Part shown: in pieces, positions 1,101 through 63,312 of the stretch | Layout of the letters: each line of letters starts with the position of its first letter | Position numbering within the stretch: position 1 is the first letter of the stretch | From: Escherichia phage vB_EcoM_CRJP21 | DNA: 64,000 nucleotides | Sequence record: OQ708376.1 | Direction: 5' to 3' (one strand) | Position numbers and translations under genes: made by a program | Notes under the pieces: generated by a model | Database searches by the model: none | What the model was told of the DNA's origin: nothing | What the model saw: the letters and a program-made list of their open reading frames with translations, nothing else

Positions 1101-1108
1101 TATAAATA
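1101..1108 (+). promoter_or_regulatory. T4-type late promoter box TATAAATA
   Basis: Exact TATAAATA about 39 nt upstream of the ATG at 1147, consistent with gp55-dependent late promoter geometry in T4. Confidence 0.5.
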
Positions 1109-1146
1109 ATCTATAGATAATGGCAGCTTGGCTATGGAGAATTATA

Positions 1147-3540
1147 ATGACAACTTTTACCCCACGATGGGATATAAAAGCCGATGCTCGATATATACAA
1201 GAAGGACAAGACATTCTTGTGCGTTTGAGTATCAATAAAGAAAGCACAACGGATGATAGCTATGTATTAAATGAAGATGAATACTTAGAAATGATTCTTA
1301 ACATACAATGCTTGGATAGTTCAGGTGCTGTATTTGATCCAGAACCACATTATACTTTTTATGTTGGTAATGACGAAAATACTTTTGTTCCTATTTCAGA
1401 TGGTACAACTGGTAATAAATTAGTAAATGGTAAGCATAAGTGTAAAATCAGCAAAAATGAATTTAACTTATCTGCAAGTACTAATAGTGAAGATGTTTAT
1501 TTTATAAAAATTCATTGTAAAAATGATGGAACCTATAATAATACAGAAATTATAAATTTTTATTTACAAGCAGTAAATGTTATGTATTTTGGAAATATTT
1601 CACCAAGTGGTGTTCTAGGATTAACTGATACATCAATAACATATGATAGTCAAGAAGTTTGGGTTACACCAGGAGTTGAGATTGGTGATGACAAAAAGCT
1701 TTATTGTATTGGTGATGTTGAGTATGGCTCCAACAGTACATTGTTCGTTCAAGGATTTGGAAGAAGACGACCTTTCATTTTGGGTACTGACATGACTACT
1801 GATATTACACCTCGTGTCTTTTTTCCAGCATATCGTTTGATTGACATGGATATTTCTGAAGTTCCAGATAAACATATTACGAATGATTTCGCAGTATTCA
1901 AGCCAGCACAATCAACATGGCCTATTTCTGGTATAAACAAAGAAGTAAAAGTTAATATTCAAAATAGAAATGGTAATTTAATTGACACTGGAATGGTGTT
2001 CAACCCAAATGGGCAATTATTGCAAACATTTTTATATGACTCAGATGCTTGTGATGCATATTTTAAAGTTGAGATTGTTGATATATTAAGTACATACACC
2101 GAAGAAAGTGAAAGGTTTGCTATCAATCAACGATATAAAGCATATCAAATGTGGGTTTGTCCTGAAGACATAGATACTATATATTCTATTTCAGAAAAAC
2201 CACTACCCAATCATTTATATCAATTAAAAGATAATGTTGTGTATCCATACGTAATTAGTGGTGAATACGATAATGGAACAATTAAGCCCGTTTATGATAG
2301 TAGTGATTGGATTGATTTAGGATATTATGACTCTACTCTTGGTGATAATATCATTGGTATGCAAAAAATGTTCAGGGTTTTGATAAACGCAGAAGAAGGT
2401 AATAATATAAACTTTATTACTGATAGTGATTTAGGAACCATACATGTTGGTGAATATTTTGGAGACAGTATATATCCTAAAATTGAAACTGATAGCTCTA
2501 ATCAAGTTTCGTATGTTTTAGATGGTGGTGATGACATTAGAAAGTATGGGATAGATTTGACACCAGATGGATATCTTGTAGGAACTGCATATGCCAAAAG
2601 TATTGATTTTAGTGAAAATGATGATATTAAATTATCGTTTTATGTTAAAGCATTTAGTACTGAAGGTGGTGAAGCAAGAAAAATATTTAACCTTAAGATT
2701 GTAAGAGGATTCGGACAGAATTATTTGAGTGCACATGTATTACCTTCGGTTGCATTTGAGAGAGAATGGTTTAAATGTATAAGTACTTCATCATTCACTA
2801 ATCAACTATTTTTCCGACAATCTGACAATAGATATGGTCTTCAGAAAATACCGAAGATGTTATTGAAAGAAAACTTCCTAAGTCAAACGTATCCATATAC
2901 TAACCTTTCTGATATCAAGAAAGTATTGAGAAATAGTATAATTAACCCAAATGGAACTACTATTCCAAATGGAAAATTTAAAATGGTAATGGGTAATTAT
3001 AAAATAATATCAGCACTTGACAATCAAGGTAACTTACAATATGATCTATTATATAGAGAGGTTTTACCTGAAGGTTCTTTAGTATCTGTATCCAAAAATC
3101 CACGTCAATATACTCAAATCGACAACGGTCAGCTTGGTGAATTATTTGGTTTACGACAAAATATTTTTCAGGCTATTGGTGAAGACACAACCAACTTAGT
3201 AAAAGACCCAACCGATTTACAAAATCGTGGTCTATACGTTGATGCGATACCAAGTATCAGTGATGAAATGCTTGATACGGTCCCAAGATTTATGAATCAC
3301 CCATACATTGAAGATGGTATACAGAAAAAATTCATGCCTATCATTCCAGTTGCATATTGTCAACCAGGCAAAGGTGAAGCATTTTTCAACACTTTACTTC
3401 AGAACAATGAACATGGTACAATGGTAGGTGTAGAGTTCGAAATCACATCGGTTGAATTCGGATACTTTTCGCATGAATCAGTGAATTATGTTTCAGATAC
3501 ATTTTTGATTACATTGCAAAACAATAACATAGGAGGTTAA
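1147..3540 (+). CDS. Large hypothetical protein (about 797 aa), probably a late/structural gene
   Basis: Long ORF (track 1120..3540); start moved to ATG 1147, which has an upstream GGAG. Preceded by a TATAAATA late box. No catalytic motif recognised. Confidence 0.6.
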   Translation: MTTFTPRWDIKADARYIQEGQDILVRLSINKESTTDDSYVLNEDEYLEMILNIQCLDSSGAVFDPEPHYTFYVGNDENTFVPISDGTTGNKLVNGKHKCKISKNEFNLSASTNSEDVYFIKIHCKNDGTYNNTEIINFYLQAVNVMYFGNISPSGVLGLTDTSITYDSQEVWVTPGVEIGDDKKLYCIGDVEYGSNSTLFVQGFGRRRPFILGTDMTTDITPRVFFPAYRLIDMDISEVPDKHITNDFAVFKPAQSTWPISGINKEVKVNIQNRNGNLIDTGMVFNPNGQLLQTFLYDSDACDAYFKVEIVDILSTYTEESERFAINQRYKAYQMWVCPEDIDTIYSISEKPLPNHLYQLKDNVVYPYVISGEYDNGTIKPVYDSSDWIDLGYYDSTLGDNIIGMQKMFRVLINAEEGNNINFITDSDLGTIHVGEYFGDSIYPKIETDSSNQVSYVLDGGDDIRKYGIDLTPDGYLVGTAYAKSIDFSENDDIKLSFYVKAFSTEGGEARKIFNLKIVRGFGQNYLSAHVLPSVAFEREWFKCISTSSFTNQLFFRQSDNRYGLQKIPKMLLKENFLSQTYPYTNLSDIKKVLRNSIINPNGTTIPNGKFKMVMGNYKIISALDNQGNLQYDLLYREVLPEGSLVSVSKNPRQYTQIDNGQLGELFGLRQNIFQAIGEDTTNLVKDPTDLQNRGLYVDAIPSISDEMLDTVPRFMNHPYIEDGIQKKFMPIIPVAYCQPGKGEAFFNTLLQNNEHGTMVGVEFEITSVEFGYFSHESVNYVSDTFLITLQNNNIGG

Positions 3541-56336: not shown

Positions 56337-56528
56337 ATGTTGATTTATCAAAGTGATAATATTCGTGTTATGCAGCATCCCTACTTACAAATCTTTGATG
56401 TGCAGCAGTATATGGAAGGTGATGACCCAAGAACCTATGGTCGTAAGTATGATTACTTCACTGTAAAGCAGTGTAAAAATATTAACGAAGTACGACAATT
56501 AGTTCAAGAACTTCAAAACAAAGGTTGA
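56337..56528 (+). CDS. Hypothetical protein (63 aa)
   Basis: Track 56283..56528; start moved to ATG 56337 behind TAAGGATTGA. Confidence 0.45.
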   Translation: MLIYQSDNIRVMQHPYLQIFDVQQYMEGDDPRTYGRKYDYFTVKQCKNINEVRQLVQELQNKG

Positions 56529-57999: not shown

Positions 58000-58221
58000 A
58001 TGAAATATATAGTACTTGTACTGATATTATTCAGTACTGTTGTAAGTGCTAAACAAAAAGAATATGTTAAATGTATAAATTATGAAGAGAAATATGTTGA
58101 AACATATAAAAAAAGTATAATTAAAAACGTTTCGATTACTAACAGAGCAACAATCATTGTACTTAAAAATGGGTTAATTATGCTATATAAACCACACGTT
58201 AAATGTGAAATTATTAATTGA
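58000..58221 (+). CDS. Small secreted protein (73 aa)
   Basis: Signal peptide MKYIVLVLILFSTVVSA. Confidence 0.5.
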   Translation: MKYIVLVLILFSTVVSAKQKEYVKCINYEEKYVETYKKSIIKNVSITNRATIIVLKNGLIMLYKPHVKCEIIN

Positions 58222-59266: not shown

Positions 59267-59337
59267 TGGGACAACCATTCTTATTATGATATAATGTTTT
59301 ATGTCATTCGATATAAATGACAACGGAACTATAAATA
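59267..59337 (+). promoter_or_regulatory. Tandem early (sigma-70-type) and T4-type late (TATAAATA) promoters
   Basis: TGGGAC, 17 bp spacer, TGATATAATGTTTT; then exact TATAAATA at 59330..59337, about 37 nt before the ATG at 59374. Confidence 0.5.
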
Positions 59338-59373
59338 TTATAGTAAAATTTATCTCTTATAGGAGTTATAAAA

Positions 59374-59757
59374 ATGGTTGATAAATGGAATAAGAAAGAT
59401 CCATCACATGATGTTGATATTTCTGGTCTAGACAATGCACATAAGCACAAGTATCTAGATTCACTAGGTCTTCTAAAACCAGACCAAAGTCTTGCACATG
59501 ATCGTCCATCCCGTGAAAAAGCATTTAGCCTAGAATCACTAGGTCATGAGCTTAATCGTGTGTTTGAGGATCACCCAATCTATGTACGTGATATTATCGA
59601 GAAACTTAAAGTAACTCCTAAAGAGCACTTTAAAGCAACTGTACACTCTGCATTCCGTGCATTGCATGATTCTCTAAAGAAAACTCACAATCTTCGTAAA
59701 ATTCATGATGAAATCGTGAATGCAATCGAAAGTGAAAAACATAAGTTCAAGAAGTAA
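59374..59757 (+). CDS. Hypothetical protein (127 aa) with SLGLL module; probable late gene
   Basis: KHKYLDSLGLLKPDQ resembles KLRYVNSLGLLNATQ in the 60028 gene; TATAAATA box upstream. Confidence 0.55.
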   Translation: MVDKWNKKDPSHDVDISGLDNAHKHKYLDSLGLLKPDQSLAHDRPSREKAFSLESLGHELNRVFEDHPIYVRDIIEKLKVTPKEHFKATVHSAFRALHDSLKKTHNLRKIHDEIVNAIESEKHKFKK

Positions 59758-59762
59758 TAAAA

Positions 59763-59796
59763 AGGGGTTGACTAAGGTCAGCCCTTTGTTGTATCA
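59763..59796 (+). terminator. Terminator hairpin with embedded -35 (composite module)
   Basis: GGGGTTGAC-TAAG-GTCAGCCC then TTTGTTGT; embedded TTGACT followed 18 bp later by TATCAT. Confidence 0.6.
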
Positions 59797-59826
59797 TAAC
59801 TTCTCAATATAACTGAGGTATCATAT

Positions 59827-59940
59827 ATGCAAGGTTTGAAATTTGTAGTTGCTGCACTCATCGCCGCAGTTCTGGTTGGTGGTGTATTCTATGTAGTGGA
59901 TCAAAAAGTAAATCCACCTGCACAAGAACAATCTAAGTAA
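59827..59940 (+). CDS. Small membrane peptide (37 aa)
   Basis: RBS TGAGGTA then ATG; MQGLKFVVAALIAAVLVGGVFYVV; flanked by terminators; not in the ORF track. Confidence 0.4.
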   Translation: MQGLKFVVAALIAAVLVGGVFYVVDQKVNPPAQEQSK

Positions 59941-59948
59941 CAAAATAA

Positions 59949-59986
59949 GGTTGACTTCGGTCAGCCTTTTCTTTATACTATAAATA
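59949..59986 (+). terminator. UUCG-tetraloop terminator fused to an early promoter and a T4-type late promoter box
   Basis: GGTTGAC-TTCG-GTCAGCC then TTTTCTTT; embedded TTGACT, 17 bp spacer, TATACT; exact TATAAATA at 59979..59986. Confidence 0.65.
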
Positions 59987-60027
59987 TAGTCATAGAGAAA
60001 AAAATGAAATCTATGGAGAGAAATCAA

Positions 60028-61515
60028 ATGCCAAGTAATTTTACTGATAAAAATGGTGGTAACATGGCTGGTCACTCTGATAAATGGAGTGAACGCAACC
60101 GCCGTCCAAATAGTTATCAAGCAGGTCAAGGTTCACGTGGGTCACGTAACCAAGGAACTGGTCTAGCTGGTAAAGCAAACGCAGAAGCAGGTGAAGTTAA
60201 GAGTACTGAGAACATGACTGAGCTAGAAAAGCTACGTTATGTTAACTCATTAGGTCTTCTTAACGCAACACAAAAACAACGCCTTGCTGATATGGAACGT
60301 GCTGAGAAAGAACAAGCAGTTCCTAAAGAAGAACCAAAAGCAGAAGTACCTAAAGCTGCTAACCCTGTTAAAGAGTTATCAGATAACTTAGGTAAGATCT
60401 TTGCTAACAAACCACAGTTGATTCAGGGTATTGTCAAAGCACTACAGGCAGTTCCTAAAGAAGAACTCAAAGGTAAAGCACAAGCTGTACTTGATGTAAT
60501 GAAAGGTAATAAGAGCACTGAACCAACTGAAGTATTCAGTACTATCATGCGTGCACTTGAAGGTACACACAAAGAAGATTCCAAAGAACCTGAACAGGGT
60601 GAAGCAAGTCTTGATGGTATTCTTAAAACTTTTGATAATATTGGTAAAGCAGACCGTGCTAATGCCCAGCAAGTCAAGAATGTACTGGCTAAACTTGAAA
60701 ACCGTTTAGAAGGTAAAGACAATAAGGTTAAGCTCGTATCAGATGCAGTTAACAGTGCACTTAAATCTTATGTACAAGGTGAGAAAAGTCGCTTCGTAAC
60801 AGCTATGGATGCTGCATTCAACACTATGAAAAAGTATGAAGCAGAACATGGTGAGAAGGTAACACCAGATGGTTATCTAAAGCGTGCAGATGAAGAGGGT
60901 GCAGTTGAACAGAAAGATGTTGAGCCTGAGCAAGAAGAAATACCTGATACCGTTGATATGGATGGATACATTCATCGTCCTGAGATGGAAGAGTTTGGGT
61001 CAGATAAAGAAGGTTTTGAACATGCAATGGCAGTATATAAAGCATTAGTTAAAAATCCAGATTATGCTAACCGTTTTGTTGACGAGTTTGATAGTGCATG
61101 GAATAACTACAAAGAGAAAGGTTATGACTTCCCTGCTGAAGCTGCATTCTTTGAACTTGGTAAACTATTAGCTAAACATGGAATTGACGTTGGTTCATCT
61201 GATTCCGAAGGTATGGAAGAAGAACATCTTGAAATGACCGATAAATCAATTCATGAACTTCAAAAGCTAATGATGTGGATATCCGAGATTGGCAAAAAAG
61301 CAGGTGCTGATCGTAAAAGTATCAACAAAAACATTAGTTGGATTAAAGATAATGTTGGTAACAATGCTCGTAAACTTCAAAAGGCGTGGGCTGATTTAGT
61401 AAATGGTGCAGATGATGTTGACATTGAATCACCAGAAGCATATGAGTATGCACTAACTACACTTGATAACTCATTCAAAGAGTACGACAGTGGTGTTGGA
61501 AAGGATAAAAAATAA
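60028..61515 (+). CDS. Large charged hypothetical protein (about 495 aa) with SLGLL module; probable late gene
   Basis: Track 60004..61515; start moved to ATG 60028 behind GGAGAGAAA; Lys/Glu-rich; visibly higher GC than its neighbours; TATAAATA late box about 42 nt upstream. Confidence 0.6.
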   Translation: MPSNFTDKNGGNMAGHSDKWSERNRRPNSYQAGQGSRGSRNQGTGLAGKANAEAGEVKSTENMTELEKLRYVNSLGLLNATQKQRLADMERAEKEQAVPKEEPKAEVPKAANPVKELSDNLGKIFANKPQLIQGIVKALQAVPKEELKGKAQAVLDVMKGNKSTEPTEVFSTIMRALEGTHKEDSKEPEQGEASLDGILKTFDNIGKADRANAQQVKNVLAKLENRLEGKDNKVKLVSDAVNSALKSYVQGEKSRFVTAMDAAFNTMKKYEAEHGEKVTPDGYLKRADEEGAVEQKDVEPEQEEIPDTVDMDGYIHRPEMEEFGSDKEGFEHAMAVYKALVKNPDYANRFVDEFDSAWNNYKEKGYDFPAEAAFFELGKLLAKHGIDVGSSDSEGMEEEHLEMTDKSIHELQKLMMWISEIGKKAGADRKSINKNISWIKDNVGNNARKLQKAWADLVNGADDVDIESPEAYEYALTTLDNSFKEYDSGVGKDKK

Positions 61516-61525
61516 ACATTTAAAA

Positions 61526-61550
61526 GGTTGACTTCGGTCAACCTTTTTTT
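61526..61550 (+). terminator. UUCG-tetraloop terminator
   Basis: GGTTGAC-TTCG-GTCAACC followed by TTTTTTT. Confidence 0.75.
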
Positions 61551-61586
61551 GTAAATATAAAAGAGGAATTAAGAAGAGGGATTACA

Positions 61587-61838
61587 ATGAAAAAATATAT
61601 TATATTTGGAATTGTATTATTTTCCAGTACTAGTTATGGTGCAGATTATCATTGCTCCGTAGCAAGACAGGATTTCAGAAATGGGGATTTCTATACCACT
61701 TCATACACAAAAGGAATAATACACGACATCGACACAACTATTGGATTTAATGCATTTGATAACAAAGATTCATATACTTCAGGTATACTATCTGAGCGTA
61801 AGACTGATGTAATGGGAATAGAAAAAGAGTTCCGGTGA
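61587..61838 (+). CDS. Small secreted protein (83 aa)
   Basis: Signal peptide MKKYIIFGIVLFSSTSYGA. Confidence 0.5.
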   Translation: MKKYIIFGIVLFSSTSYGADYHCSVARQDFRNGDFYTTSYTKGIIHDIDTTIGFNAFDNKDSYTSGILSERKTDVMGIEKEFR

Positions 61839-61848
61839 TTCAGTAGCA

Positions 61849-62172
61849 ATGTGCAATGACATTGAAAGTACTAAAACAATTTATTATAATAATGAACGTA
61901 ATTATCGTTTTCATAATTTAACCACAAATAAAAGTTTACTATTTTACAATTGTAAAGAAGTAAAACTCCCACCCGACAATAGCTGTAACCCGACGAACCC
62001 ATCACCAGCACAATGTAATACTCAATCTGAACCTGATAACAATAAAAAAGACAAAGATAAAGATAAAAAAGAAGACAAAAAACCTTTAAAAGATAAAAAG
62101 AAAGATAAAAAACCTAATCCGTTTAAAAATAATAAACCAGCACAACCCGATATGACGTGTAAAATAAAATAA
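61849..62172 (+). CDS. Cys- and Lys-rich low-complexity protein (107 aa)
   Basis: KDKDKDKKEDKKPLKDKKKDKKPNP repeat tract; several Cys residues. Confidence 0.4.
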   Translation: MCNDIESTKTIYYNNERNYRFHNLTTNKSLLFYNCKEVKLPPDNSCNPTNPSPAQCNTQSEPDNNKKDKDKDKKEDKKPLKDKKKDKKPNPFKNNKPAQPDMTCKIK

Positions 62173-62181
62173 GGATATATA

Positions 62182-62601
62182 ATGAAAAAGATTTTTTTAA
62201 GTATTATTTTAGTACTTTTTAGTTTTAATGTATATGCAGCAGATGCTAAACAGGTTGCAAATACAGTAAAAGATGTTATAGTAGATAATGCTCCTACATT
62301 AGAGGAAATTGGGGTAAAAACTTGTGATATAGTAATATATAATTTAGTTAATGATGAACGAGTTATGTTGAATACGTATGAACAAGTAGTCCCATTGGTT
62401 GAATCTGGTGATGCTTTTAGCTTTACATATAAAGTTAAATTAACAGGAGGGGTTGAAGTTAATCTTGACATTGATACCGCTTCAGTACTAAAAGATAAAC
62501 TAGGATATGTGTTCAATCGTATTCGTGAAGAAGGTCATCTTAAGTATGTTTATGAAAGTAAAATACTAAAACGTGCAATAGTTATAGAAAACTGTAAATG
62601 A
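62182..62601 (+). CDS. Secreted protein (139 aa)
   Basis: Signal peptide MKKIFLSIILVLFSFNVYAADA; RBS TAAGGATA. Confidence 0.55.
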   Translation: MKKIFLSIILVLFSFNVYAADAKQVANTVKDVIVDNAPTLEEIGVKTCDIVIYNLVNDERVMLNTYEQVVPLVESGDAFSFTYKVKLTGGVEVNLDIDTASVLKDKLGYVFNRIREEGHLKYVYESKILKRAIVIENCK

Positions 62602-62609
62602 TAATAAAA

Positions 62610-62642
62610 GGGTTGACTTCGGTCAGCCTTTTTTGTTATGAT
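62610..62642 (+). terminator. UUCG-tetraloop terminator with embedded -35 (composite module)
   Basis: GGGTTGAC-TTCG-GTCAGCC then TTTTTT; embedded TTGACT followed 18 bp later by TATGAT. Confidence 0.7.
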
Positions 62643-62670
62643 GTTGATATTAACTACAGAGGATAAAGTA

Positions 62671-63312
62671 ATGACTAAGCAAGAAATATTCAAAACTTTA
62701 ATTGACATTTTGCGTCCATCAAAAACTCGTTGTGCGATGGAGTTTGATATTCCTTATGCTGAACGCGTAATCTTTCCACAAGTTAAAGCTGCTGGACTTA
62801 CTTTGCTTGGAATGGGGATGTACTCTGTAGTAGTTGAACATAAAAACTATCCTGGACGAGCATTTAAAGTAACCACTTCACGCTGGGATGGTTTTCGTGC
62901 TTATGCAAAGTACTGCATTGAAAACGCAGGAACCAAGTTTCTTCCAGTGATCTACAGTGCCAACGAACAAGGAAACTTTGGATGGTATGAGATGGACAAG
63001 TACTATCCTATAATTAAACAAAAAAATAATTATGATGACTTTGTTAGTACTAAAATTGGAGATTTGTATTCGTATGCACATGCTGGTCAGTACGCAACTT
63101 CAGTGAATGATATGCGTGGAAATTCTGAAGAGATTGCTATTGCAACGGTCGCTGCTAACATCATGAAAGAGTTTCACGGGCGTTTTGTACCAGACATTCA
63201 TTCAAGTAATGTGATGATGGATAAAGATGGGAATGTATTCATTACTGATCCTCTTTCGTGTGATGTGCGTAGAGAAATACCAATTACTGAAGAAGATCCA
63301 GTTTTTTATTGA
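62671..63312 (+). CDS. Putative atypical protein-kinase-like protein
   Basis: AFKV (VAIK-like lysine), DIHSSNVMMD (HxDxxxxN-like catalytic loop) and FITDP (DFG-like); track start 62638 lies in the terminator U-tract, so ATG 62671 behind AGAGGATAA was used. Confidence 0.45.
   Translation: MTKQEIFKTLIDILRPSKTRCAMEFDIPYAERVIFPQVKAAGLTLLGMGMYSVVVEHKNYPGRAFKVTTSRWDGFRAYAKYCIENAGTKFLPVIYSANEQGNFGWYEMDKYYPIIKQKNNYDDFVSTKIGDLYSYAHAGQYATSVNDMRGNSEEIAIATVAANIMKEFHGRFVPDIHSSNVMMDKDGNVFITDPLSCDVRREIPITEEDPVFY

Follow-up and report, generated by a model that had tools for sequence, protein, structure and literature searches.

A paralogous pair of late virion protein genes in a 121Q-like jumbo phage: shared module, promoters and candidate location in the head

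The gp199–gp201 locus and its shared module

A stretch of 64,000 nucleotides (nt) from the genome of Escherichia phage vB_EcoM_CRJP21 (OQ708376.1), here called the window, carries two genes whose products share a short motif near their N-termini and which were singled out in a preliminary description made from the sequence alone. The genes, confirmed here as open reading frames (ORFs) on the + strand (Table 1), are the orthologues of genes 199 and 201 of Escherichia phage 121Q, and their products are referred to below as gp199 and gp201. They encode late-expressed virion proteins, a real but largely known feature; the analysis adds that the two proteins are paralogues built on a defined module, that gp201 evolves as a mosaic and that its family apparently avoids a protease motif.

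The preliminary description had reasoned from phage T4. The phage is not T4 but a 121Q-like member of the genus Asteriusvirus, a group that does share T4-like head genes. Over 2.4 kb around the locus, the DNA is 99.7% identical to phage 121Q (348 kb, a RaK2-like jumbo myovirus), and 99.1-99.2% identical to phages PBECO4, ECO103 4-12-1 and EC22.5-2; for most of the remaining Asteriusvirus isolates found, the identity is 84-93%. The two genes are essentially the same as PBI_121Q_199 and PBI_121Q_201, without substantive difference in gene order, promoter boxes or terminators, and RefSeq labels both 121Q proteins as “virion structural protein”. On the + strand, gp199 is followed by an ORF of 37 amino acids (aa), which corresponds to 121Q gene 200, and then by gp201; gp199 and gp201 each form a transcription unit of their own amid small early-type genes. 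When delimited mechanically, the ORF of gp201 begins at 60004; the start given in Table 1 is favoured because all homologues begin with MPxxF and a ribosome-binding site, GGAGAG at 60015-60020, lies ahead of this ATG.

Table 1. Features of the gp199–gp201 locus (positions in the window)
Feature	Position	Strand	Evidence or remark
Possible sigma70-like promoter with extended -10 (TGATATAAT at 59287-59295), upstream of gp199	59284..59295	+	Consensus match only, TTGGGA-18-TATAAT with TG
Exact TATAAATA box, putative T4-type late promoter of gp199, 37 nt before ATG	59330..59337	+	
gp199 orthologue, short paralogue; 127 aa, 14.8 kDa, isoelectric point (pI) 9.05	59374..59757	+	phrog_16530, E = 6e-56
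Stretch coding for the conserved motif helix of gp199, aa 21-34	59434..59475	+	Alignment, AlphaFold model
Intrinsic terminator after gp199, stem GGGGTTGAC-TAAG-GTCAGCCCC, then U-run	59762..59792	+	-18.3 kcal/mol, z = -6.1
gp200 orthologue, 37 aa, hydrophobic, single transmembrane-like	59827..59940	+	phrog_35037 match
Intrinsic terminator after gp200, AAGGTTGAC-TTCG-GTCAGCCTT, then T-run	59947..59975	+	-12.4 kcal/mol
Possible sigma70-like promoter TTGACT-17-TATACT, overlapping terminator stem and late box	59951..59979	+	Consensus match only
Exact TATAAATA box, putative T4-type late promoter of gp201, 42 nt before ATG	59979..59986	+	
gp201 orthologue, long paralogue; 495 aa, 55 kDa, pI 5.2, no Cys	60028..61515	+	phrog_20398, E = 5e-250
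gp201 N-terminus, aa 1-60: basic (pI 10.2), Gly/Ser/Asn-rich, predicted disordered, highly conserved	60028..60207	+	
gp201 motif helix ELEKLRYVNSLGLL, aa 64-78	60217..60261	+	Alignment, model
gp201 four-helix bundle, aa 113-177, homologous to gp199 aa 53-126	60364..60558	+	
gp201 aa 190-495: acidic (pI 4.8) array of helical modules; presence and order vary among related phages	60595..61512	+	
Intrinsic terminator after gp201, AAAAGGTTGAC-TTCG-GTCAACCTTTT, then T-run	61522..61551	+	-15.6 kcal/mol

The motif first noticed in the two proteins, K-x-x-Y-[LV]-x-S-L-G-L-L, is indeed present in both (K24-HK-Y-L-D-SLGLL34 in gp199 and K68-LR-Y-V-N-SLGLL78 in gp201), and the resemblance reaches well past it: pairwise BLASTP aligns the two proteins across ~110 aa with E = 5e-8, and residues 1-180 of gp201 match the gp199 profile phrog_16530 at E = 5e-38. 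In the family alignment, 13 invariant columns are distributed across a module that comprises a helix with the pattern (D/T)TSKMxxxEKLKYFxSLGLL, a variable Pro/Lys/Glu linker and a four-helix bundle with an invariant L..F...P.....I...L. The AlphaFold model of gp199 contains a disordered N-terminus, the motif helix (aa 21-30, KHKYLDSLGLL) and the bundle (aa 53-126), and gp201 is modelled as a chain of small helical bundles with disordered linkers between them. The N-terminus of gp201 follows the conserved pattern MPxxFTDKNGGNMAGHSDKW...RGSRNQGTG. This basic leader is present in gp201 and in the single-copy homologues of other genera; gp199 has lost all of it but a DKW remnant. The earlier remarks on the charge and base composition of gp201 were borne out, with 33% charged residues (72 K+R, 90 D+E) and a GC content of 38.9% against 33.2% in the window, a value within the range of abundant virion genes of the related phage phAPEC6 (43% for the major capsid protein and 38% for the sheath).

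By sequence comparison, gp199 and gp201 are paralogues that arose through module duplication, and SLGLL marks the most conserved, amphipathic helix of the ~110-aa module. A hidden Markov model (HMM) of the module, run on every phAPEC6 and window ORF of 30 aa or more, detected no third carrier besides the two paralogues, and in the same search none of the ~58 other virion proteins of phAPEC6 detected by mass spectrometry (MS) carried it. Since the profile finds only two genes, the module is not a tag common to many virion proteins, and the similarity reflects common descent. The common targeting signal envisaged in the preliminary description is thus replaced by paralogy along the whole common length of the two proteins. 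A regular-expression match of the motif in a Dam methylase was taken as chance.

Late promoters and virion association

The octamer TATAAATA lies upstream of both genes, and its exact form and late-promoter spacing agree with the preliminary description. On the + strand of the window it occurs three times, compared with ~10.8 copies expected from base composition. The third copy, at 1101, precedes by 39 nt a 797-aa gene corresponding to 121Q gp54 (phAPEC6 gp158c, 90 kDa; 1101..3540). All three coding-strand boxes stand in intergenic DNA, 37-42 nt upstream of a gene with an orthologue in the phAPEC6 virion proteome; the two minus-strand copies of the window are antisense within + strand ORFs. 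The same box and spacing are found at phAPEC6 gp037c, the orthologue of gp199, and the long RaK2 homologue gp275 has a AATAAATA box 33 nt before its ATG. In the first 350 kb of phAPEC6, 15 boxes were counted on both strands against ~43 expected per strand. Eleven of the 15 are located 17-57 nt ahead of a ribosome-binding site and ATG, and seven lie 35-48 nt upstream of genes for virion proteins detected by MS, among them the major capsid and scaffold proteins, for which the chance expectation with 15 boxes is ~0.03, given ~61 such gene starts. The endonuclease VII gene of phAPEC6 also has a box upstream.

A sigma factor of the gp55 family was identified in phAPEC6, where gp237c matches phrog_234 (“late sigma transcription factor”) at E = 8e-18 and phrog_12791 at E = 3e-154; the match was made in phAPEC6, and the gene lies outside the 64-kb window. 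Previously, an ATAAATA motif before structural genes of phages CBB and GAP32 was likened to the T4 late promoter by the authors of the CBB paper, who detected no homologues of gp33 or gp45 in CBB (PMC5259590). The late-promoter motif was therefore already described for this phage group, and the genome-wide box statistics are the addition made here. Position and conservation well support the assignment of the boxes as putative T4-type, gp55-dependent late promoters of gp199 and gp201, which would be read by the phage gp55-like sigma factor; the same rare box at the capsid and scaffold genes and the presence of this factor also support the late-promoter drive proposed earlier. The features shared with T4 late units are the exact box, the gp55-like sigma factor of the genus, the location of the box before head and virion genes and its counter-selection elsewhere in the genome. 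The differences are that the phage of the window is only distantly related to T4 and that gp33 and gp45 homologues are reported missing in CBB. The gp54 gene, whose phAPEC6 orthologue is a further MS-detected virion protein, lies amid replication genes (topoisomerase, clamp loader).

The presence of gp199 and gp201 in virions is indicated by published mass spectrometry of their orthologues, which were assigned by sequence comparison as phAPEC6 gp037c for gp199 and gp035c for gp201. Electrospray ionization tandem mass spectrometry of purified phAPEC6 particles, with a virion proteome of 62 proteins, detected gp037c (14.83 kDa) by 5 peptides with 48% coverage and gp035c (46.4 kDa) by 8 peptides with 28.8% coverage (PMC7247149). 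In RaK2 virions, the long homologue gp275 was covered to 34.3% by 20 peptides (PMC3622015 Table S3), and in CBB virions the 172-aa single-copy homologue CBB_38 was covered to 56.6% by 9 peptides (PMC5259590). All of these proteins belong to the same family as gp199 and gp201 of the window, PHROG 16530/20398 (“virion structural protein”), to which profile matches assign the two proteins. The detection of homologues in purified virions of phAPEC6, RaK2 and CBB, which represent three genera, supports the virion association suggested in the preliminary description and contradicts the absence from virions that it had named as a refutation.

Family distribution and location in the virion

In tblastn and two protein searches, matches to the family were confined to RaK2-like jumbo phages: Asteriusvirus, Alcyoneusvirus, Mimasvirus, the group of Serratia BF, Yersinia fHe-Yen9 and Erwinia phages, Salmonella Munch/7t3 and one Xanthomonas phage. 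An exhaustive profile search of 1.84 billion representatives returned 34 proteins, mostly of short (107-270 aa) or long (410-600 aa) form, among which three repeat proteins fit only part of the profile. In RaK2 the long form alone occurs, and gp276, the neighbour of its gp275, is not homologous to gp199; CBB has only the 172-aa short form. The constant part of the family consists of the N-terminal 85-180 residues, and the remainder comprises 0 to ~450 aa of helical modules whose presence and order depend on the phage. Several comparisons illustrate the mosaic evolution of gp201. Relative to phage G17, gp201 is 85.5% identical with insertions and deletions (indels), compared with 93.5-100% for gp199, gp200 and 13 further neighbours. 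Relative to phAPEC6, a ~260-nt indel inside gp201 is the only break within the locus in otherwise 98% collinear DNA, and gp035c lacks ~86 aa of the C-terminal array. In the metagenomic protein P0078 (171 aa), a gp201-type N-terminus is joined to a gp199-type body.

Pieces of the module are also repeated in three unrelated tandem-repeat proteins of metagenomic or phage origin, P0104, P0098 and P0101. P0104 (L014:283-2208), encoded on a 3-kb contig, contains six copies of 'ELEKLRYQNSLGLLDAEGQQRM', a part of the module in tandem; a fibre-like metagenomic protein of 2048 aa repeats 'DxDxLxYINSLGV' 8 times, and a protein of 1135 aa has seven copies of a bundle-like unit. In Pseudoalteromonas phage vB_Pun_Y3 (L015:6545-8104), a relative of P0104 is encoded between tail-fibre and acetyltransferase genes, upstream of a giant ParB-domain protein, a context that suggests a virion protein and is uninformative on function. 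The GenBank name of phAPEC6 gp035c (L003:2328-3581), “chromosome segregation protein (SMC)”, rests on a weak match of the coiled-coil type, and a Pfam SMC domain was not detected in gp201.

Bubblegrams of 121Q and phAPEC6 revealed a phiKZ-like inner body of 91 x 18 nm. The prohead protease of these phages is of the T4 gp21 family (Pfam Peptidase_S77, E = 1e-20), and a T4-like specificity for L/I-x-E would fit two observations: cleavage of the major capsid protein at LTE|S (residues 41-43) predicts a product of 37.2 kDa, compared with the published mature size of 37 kDa on gels, and the phAPEC6 scaffold protein contains 24 L/I-x-E sites against 6.9 expected, a ~3.5-fold excess and the strongest enrichment among 60 virion proteins. 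The opposite was found for the gp201 family, in which 20 homologues together contain 22 [LI]xE sites against 92 expected (observed/expected 0.24, ~4-fold depleted); the corresponding ratios for the control patterns are 1.25 for [LI]xD, 1.87 for [LI]xK and 0.98 for [VM]xE. The depletion extends to the variable C-terminal part (0.33), and phAPEC6 gp035c is the most [LI]xE-depleted of the 60 virion proteins. Such avoidance would be expected for a flexible, exposed protein that survives beside an active prohead protease and provides a weak clue to the location of gp201.

Taken as a whole, the explanation that we consider best, and somewhat more probable than otherwise, is that gp199 and gp201 are late-expressed, paralogous virion proteins that are packaged inside the head with the DNA, stay uncleaved and are candidates for the phiKZ-like inner body of 121Q and phAPEC6. 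In this reading, the protein would be anchored or incorporated through its conserved, uncleaved N-terminal part and would carry its variable C-terminal part as payload; both proteins would escape trimming by the T4 gp21-type prohead protease, with the gp201 family avoiding its L/I-x-E motif. The head-internal location taken by itself remains tentative, a possibility that falls a little short of probable; it is rated at this level because of the weak protease clue, the conserved basic disordered N-terminus, the architecture of constant head and variable tail, and a fold that is neither fibre-like nor shell-like. A more elaborate version is doubtful: the family would constitute protease-resistant, uncleaved inner-body or other DNA-embedded material, into which the basic tail and the KLxYxxSLGLL helix incorporate the protein, while the mosaic, fast-evolving C-terminal array is injected for host takeover or counter-defence; it would be a functional analogue of the T4 internal and phiKZ inner-body proteins that shares neither their sequences nor a cleavable signal.

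A number of observations weigh against packaging in the head or against strictly late expression. The authors of the phAPEC6 study favoured RCC1-like proteins for the inner body and reported no phAPEC6 protein similar to phiKZ inner-body proteins (PMC7247149). In our searches, Pfam and a Foldseek comparison with viral structures gave no sequence or fold similarity of gp199 and gp201 to T4 internal proteins or phiKZ inner-body proteins, and the Foldseek matches among viral structures were family members only. The protease clue failed in a T4 control, where the packaged protein Alt is not depleted (observed/expected 1.02); the T4 scaffold gp22 is enriched 2.8-fold in [LI]xE, and the small T4 internal proteins (IPs) are uninformative. 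The gp201-family counts come from sequences that are not independent of one another, the gp199-type paralogues are not depleted (26 sites observed against 21.7 expected), and a tail-fibre protein of phAPEC6 is depleted likewise. A literature search found no N-terminal sequencing and no experiment that places gp199 or gp201 in the head as opposed to the tail, neck or surface fibres, nor any RNA-seq, transcriptome or 5'-end mapping for an Asteriusvirus. Sigma70-like promoters lie upstream of both genes, so that their expression may not be exclusively late. L/I-x-E avoidance had also been considered as a general test of residence in the head interior, and was rejected since the Alt control did not validate it.

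Among the alternatives, an external or peripheral position is unlikely, though less so than the others: gp199 and gp201 would be the hairs of the capsid or tail or their anchors, a decoration protein, or a neck or tail accessory, with the C-terminal array exposed. Phages 121Q, phAPEC6 and CBB bear hairs and decoration densities without an assigned protein, a fast-evolving mosaic C-terminus like that of gp201 is typical of exposed proteins, and the fibre-like metagenomic protein mentioned above repeats a motif similar to SLGLL. The family, however, is present in all RaK2-like genera, and in several of them its members have ~160 aa, too short for hairs of 30 nm; the models are all-helical with disordered linkers and show no beta-rich fibre or Ig-like fold, the MS coverage is below that of likely decoration proteins, and the L/I-x-E avoidance would be left without explanation. 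It is improbable that the two are assembly factors of the scaffold or chaperone type, or abundant late proteins that become trapped in or co-purify with virions and have no mature role. Virion proteomes of these phages do include “unexpected” members (SSB, RecA, topoisomerase and thymidylate synthase, for example), and a helical, highly charged character is scaffold-like, but three virion preparations, made independently and from three genera, all contained homologues, at 29-57% coverage, and the true scaffold is rich in protease sites, the opposite of gp201.

The suggestion that SLGLL belongs to a shared, cleavable signal of the type of the T4 capsid targeting sequence (CTS), which the prohead protease removes from internal proteins, is more improbable still. 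In its favour are the T4-type prohead protease of the genus, the conservation of precisely the N-terminal region, and T4 IPI-III, each of which has one L/I-x-E at the end of its CTS. Yet the motif and its surroundings are free of L/I-x-E: the only sites of gp201, at aa 408 and 418, are more than 300 residues away, phAPEC6 gp035c lacks such sites altogether, and the single site of gp199, IIE (aa 74-76), is inside the folded bundle. Moreover, the motif lies at aa 24-34 and aa 68-78, away from the extreme N-terminus and at an offset that arises because gp199 is without the basic leader; it is found in no other virion protein, and the similarity runs through a folded domain and thus reflects common descent. 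A T4-style signal, as implied in the preliminary description, is therefore not upheld, and any role of the conserved N-terminal part in incorporation would most likely leave it in place on the protein. Chance alone can also make short motifs and AT-rich octamers recur, but a chance origin of both the SLGLL motif and the promoter boxes has practically no probability: it is refuted by the pairwise and profile E-values of the paralogues, and TATAAATA is 4- to 6-fold under-represented, with every coding-strand copy of the window placed just before a virion protein gene.

The favoured explanation, packaging inside the head, invites comparison with known internal proteins. Like T4 IPI, IPII, IPIII and Alt, gp199 and gp201 are virion proteins encoded apart from the head cluster among early genes, they have a conserved N-terminal part and a remainder that varies across relatives, and both phages possess an S77 prohead protease. 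In T4 IPI-III, the only L/I-x-E, IAE|A or ITE|A at aa 8-19, ends the targeting peptide. gp199 and gp201 differ in having no sequence similarity to these proteins and no CTS-like decapeptide ending in L/I-x-E, their motif being internal, and also in their promoters, since no TATAAATA box occurs within 110 nt upstream of the T4 ip gene starts. With the phiKZ inner-body proteins (the paralogues gp93/95/97, and gp89, gp90 and gp162) they share a phage with a bubblegram inner body as well as a paralogous, virion-associated nature; they lack sequence and fold similarity to them, and gp175 cleaves the phiKZ proteins extensively at S/A/G-x-E, whereas the sequence of gp201 seems suited to avoiding cleavage. 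By sequence, fold and signal, gp199 and gp201 fall outside the families of the T4 internal proteins and of the phiKZ inner-body proteins, and a functional analogy to either is possible.

As it stands, the result is a rediscovery of annotated virion proteins and of a known late-promoter motif, and little changes. If the proteins are indeed head-internal, they would offer a handle on inner-body composition in a T4-related lineage and exemplify the packaging of proteins with no cleavage of a targeting peptide, and cargo tagged with the N-terminal module could be loaded into the capsids of jumbo phages.

Flanking hairpins, sigma70-like promoters and neighbouring genes

The strong flanking terminators noted earlier correspond to three hairpins of -12.4 to -18.3 kcal/mol, all with z <= -5 relative to shuffled sequence, and the equivalent sites in phage G17 are annotated by ARNOLD. 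The stem of the gp199 terminator holds a -35-like hexamer, TTGACT, in the arrangement TTGACT-18-TATCAT. In total, five near-identical hairpins (GGTTGAC-TTCG-GTCAGCC, then a T-run) occur on the + strand within 6 kb, at 56523, 59766, 59949, 61526 and 62611, compared with a genome-wide count of 8 in phAPEC6, and the same hairpin follows RaK2 gp275. The 5' stem contains TTGACT, and in 4 of the 5 copies a -10-like hexamer (TATAAT, TATCAT, TATACT or TATGAT) is found 17-18 nt further on. Judged from these consensus matches, each hairpin could be both a terminator and the -35 element of the next sigma70-type promoter, and such terminator-plus-promoter cassettes may be of use as compact regulatory parts. 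Although CBB_38 was detected in virions, a consensus sigma70 promoter, TTGACA-18-TATAAT, stands upstream of its gene (L005:1410-1500) in place of a late box; this single-copy homologue is located in the 22-kb terminal repeat of CBB.

The small gp200 gene has hairpins on both sides and its product is 100% identical in phage G17; its orthologue is absent from the phAPEC6 virion protein list. Pfam scans of gp199, gp201 and the 37-aa ORF yielded sub-threshold noise only, and an Rfam scan of 58.5-62.7 kb gave no match. The endonuclease V gene denV lies downstream, in the same orientation, of both the T4 ip genes and the candidate internal-protein genes of 121Q, adjoining in T4 (65416..66415) and at a distance of ~5.6 kb in 121Q (gene 217; window 59374..63312); this synteny was set aside as evidence, being too weak and probably a coincidence. 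The ORFs around the locus include three small ones with signal-peptide-like N-termini (58000..58221, 61587..61838 and 62182..62601), a Lys/Asp-repeat ORF (KKDKDKDKKEDKK...; 61849..62172) and a protein kinase gene annotated as T7 gp0.7-like (62638..63312).

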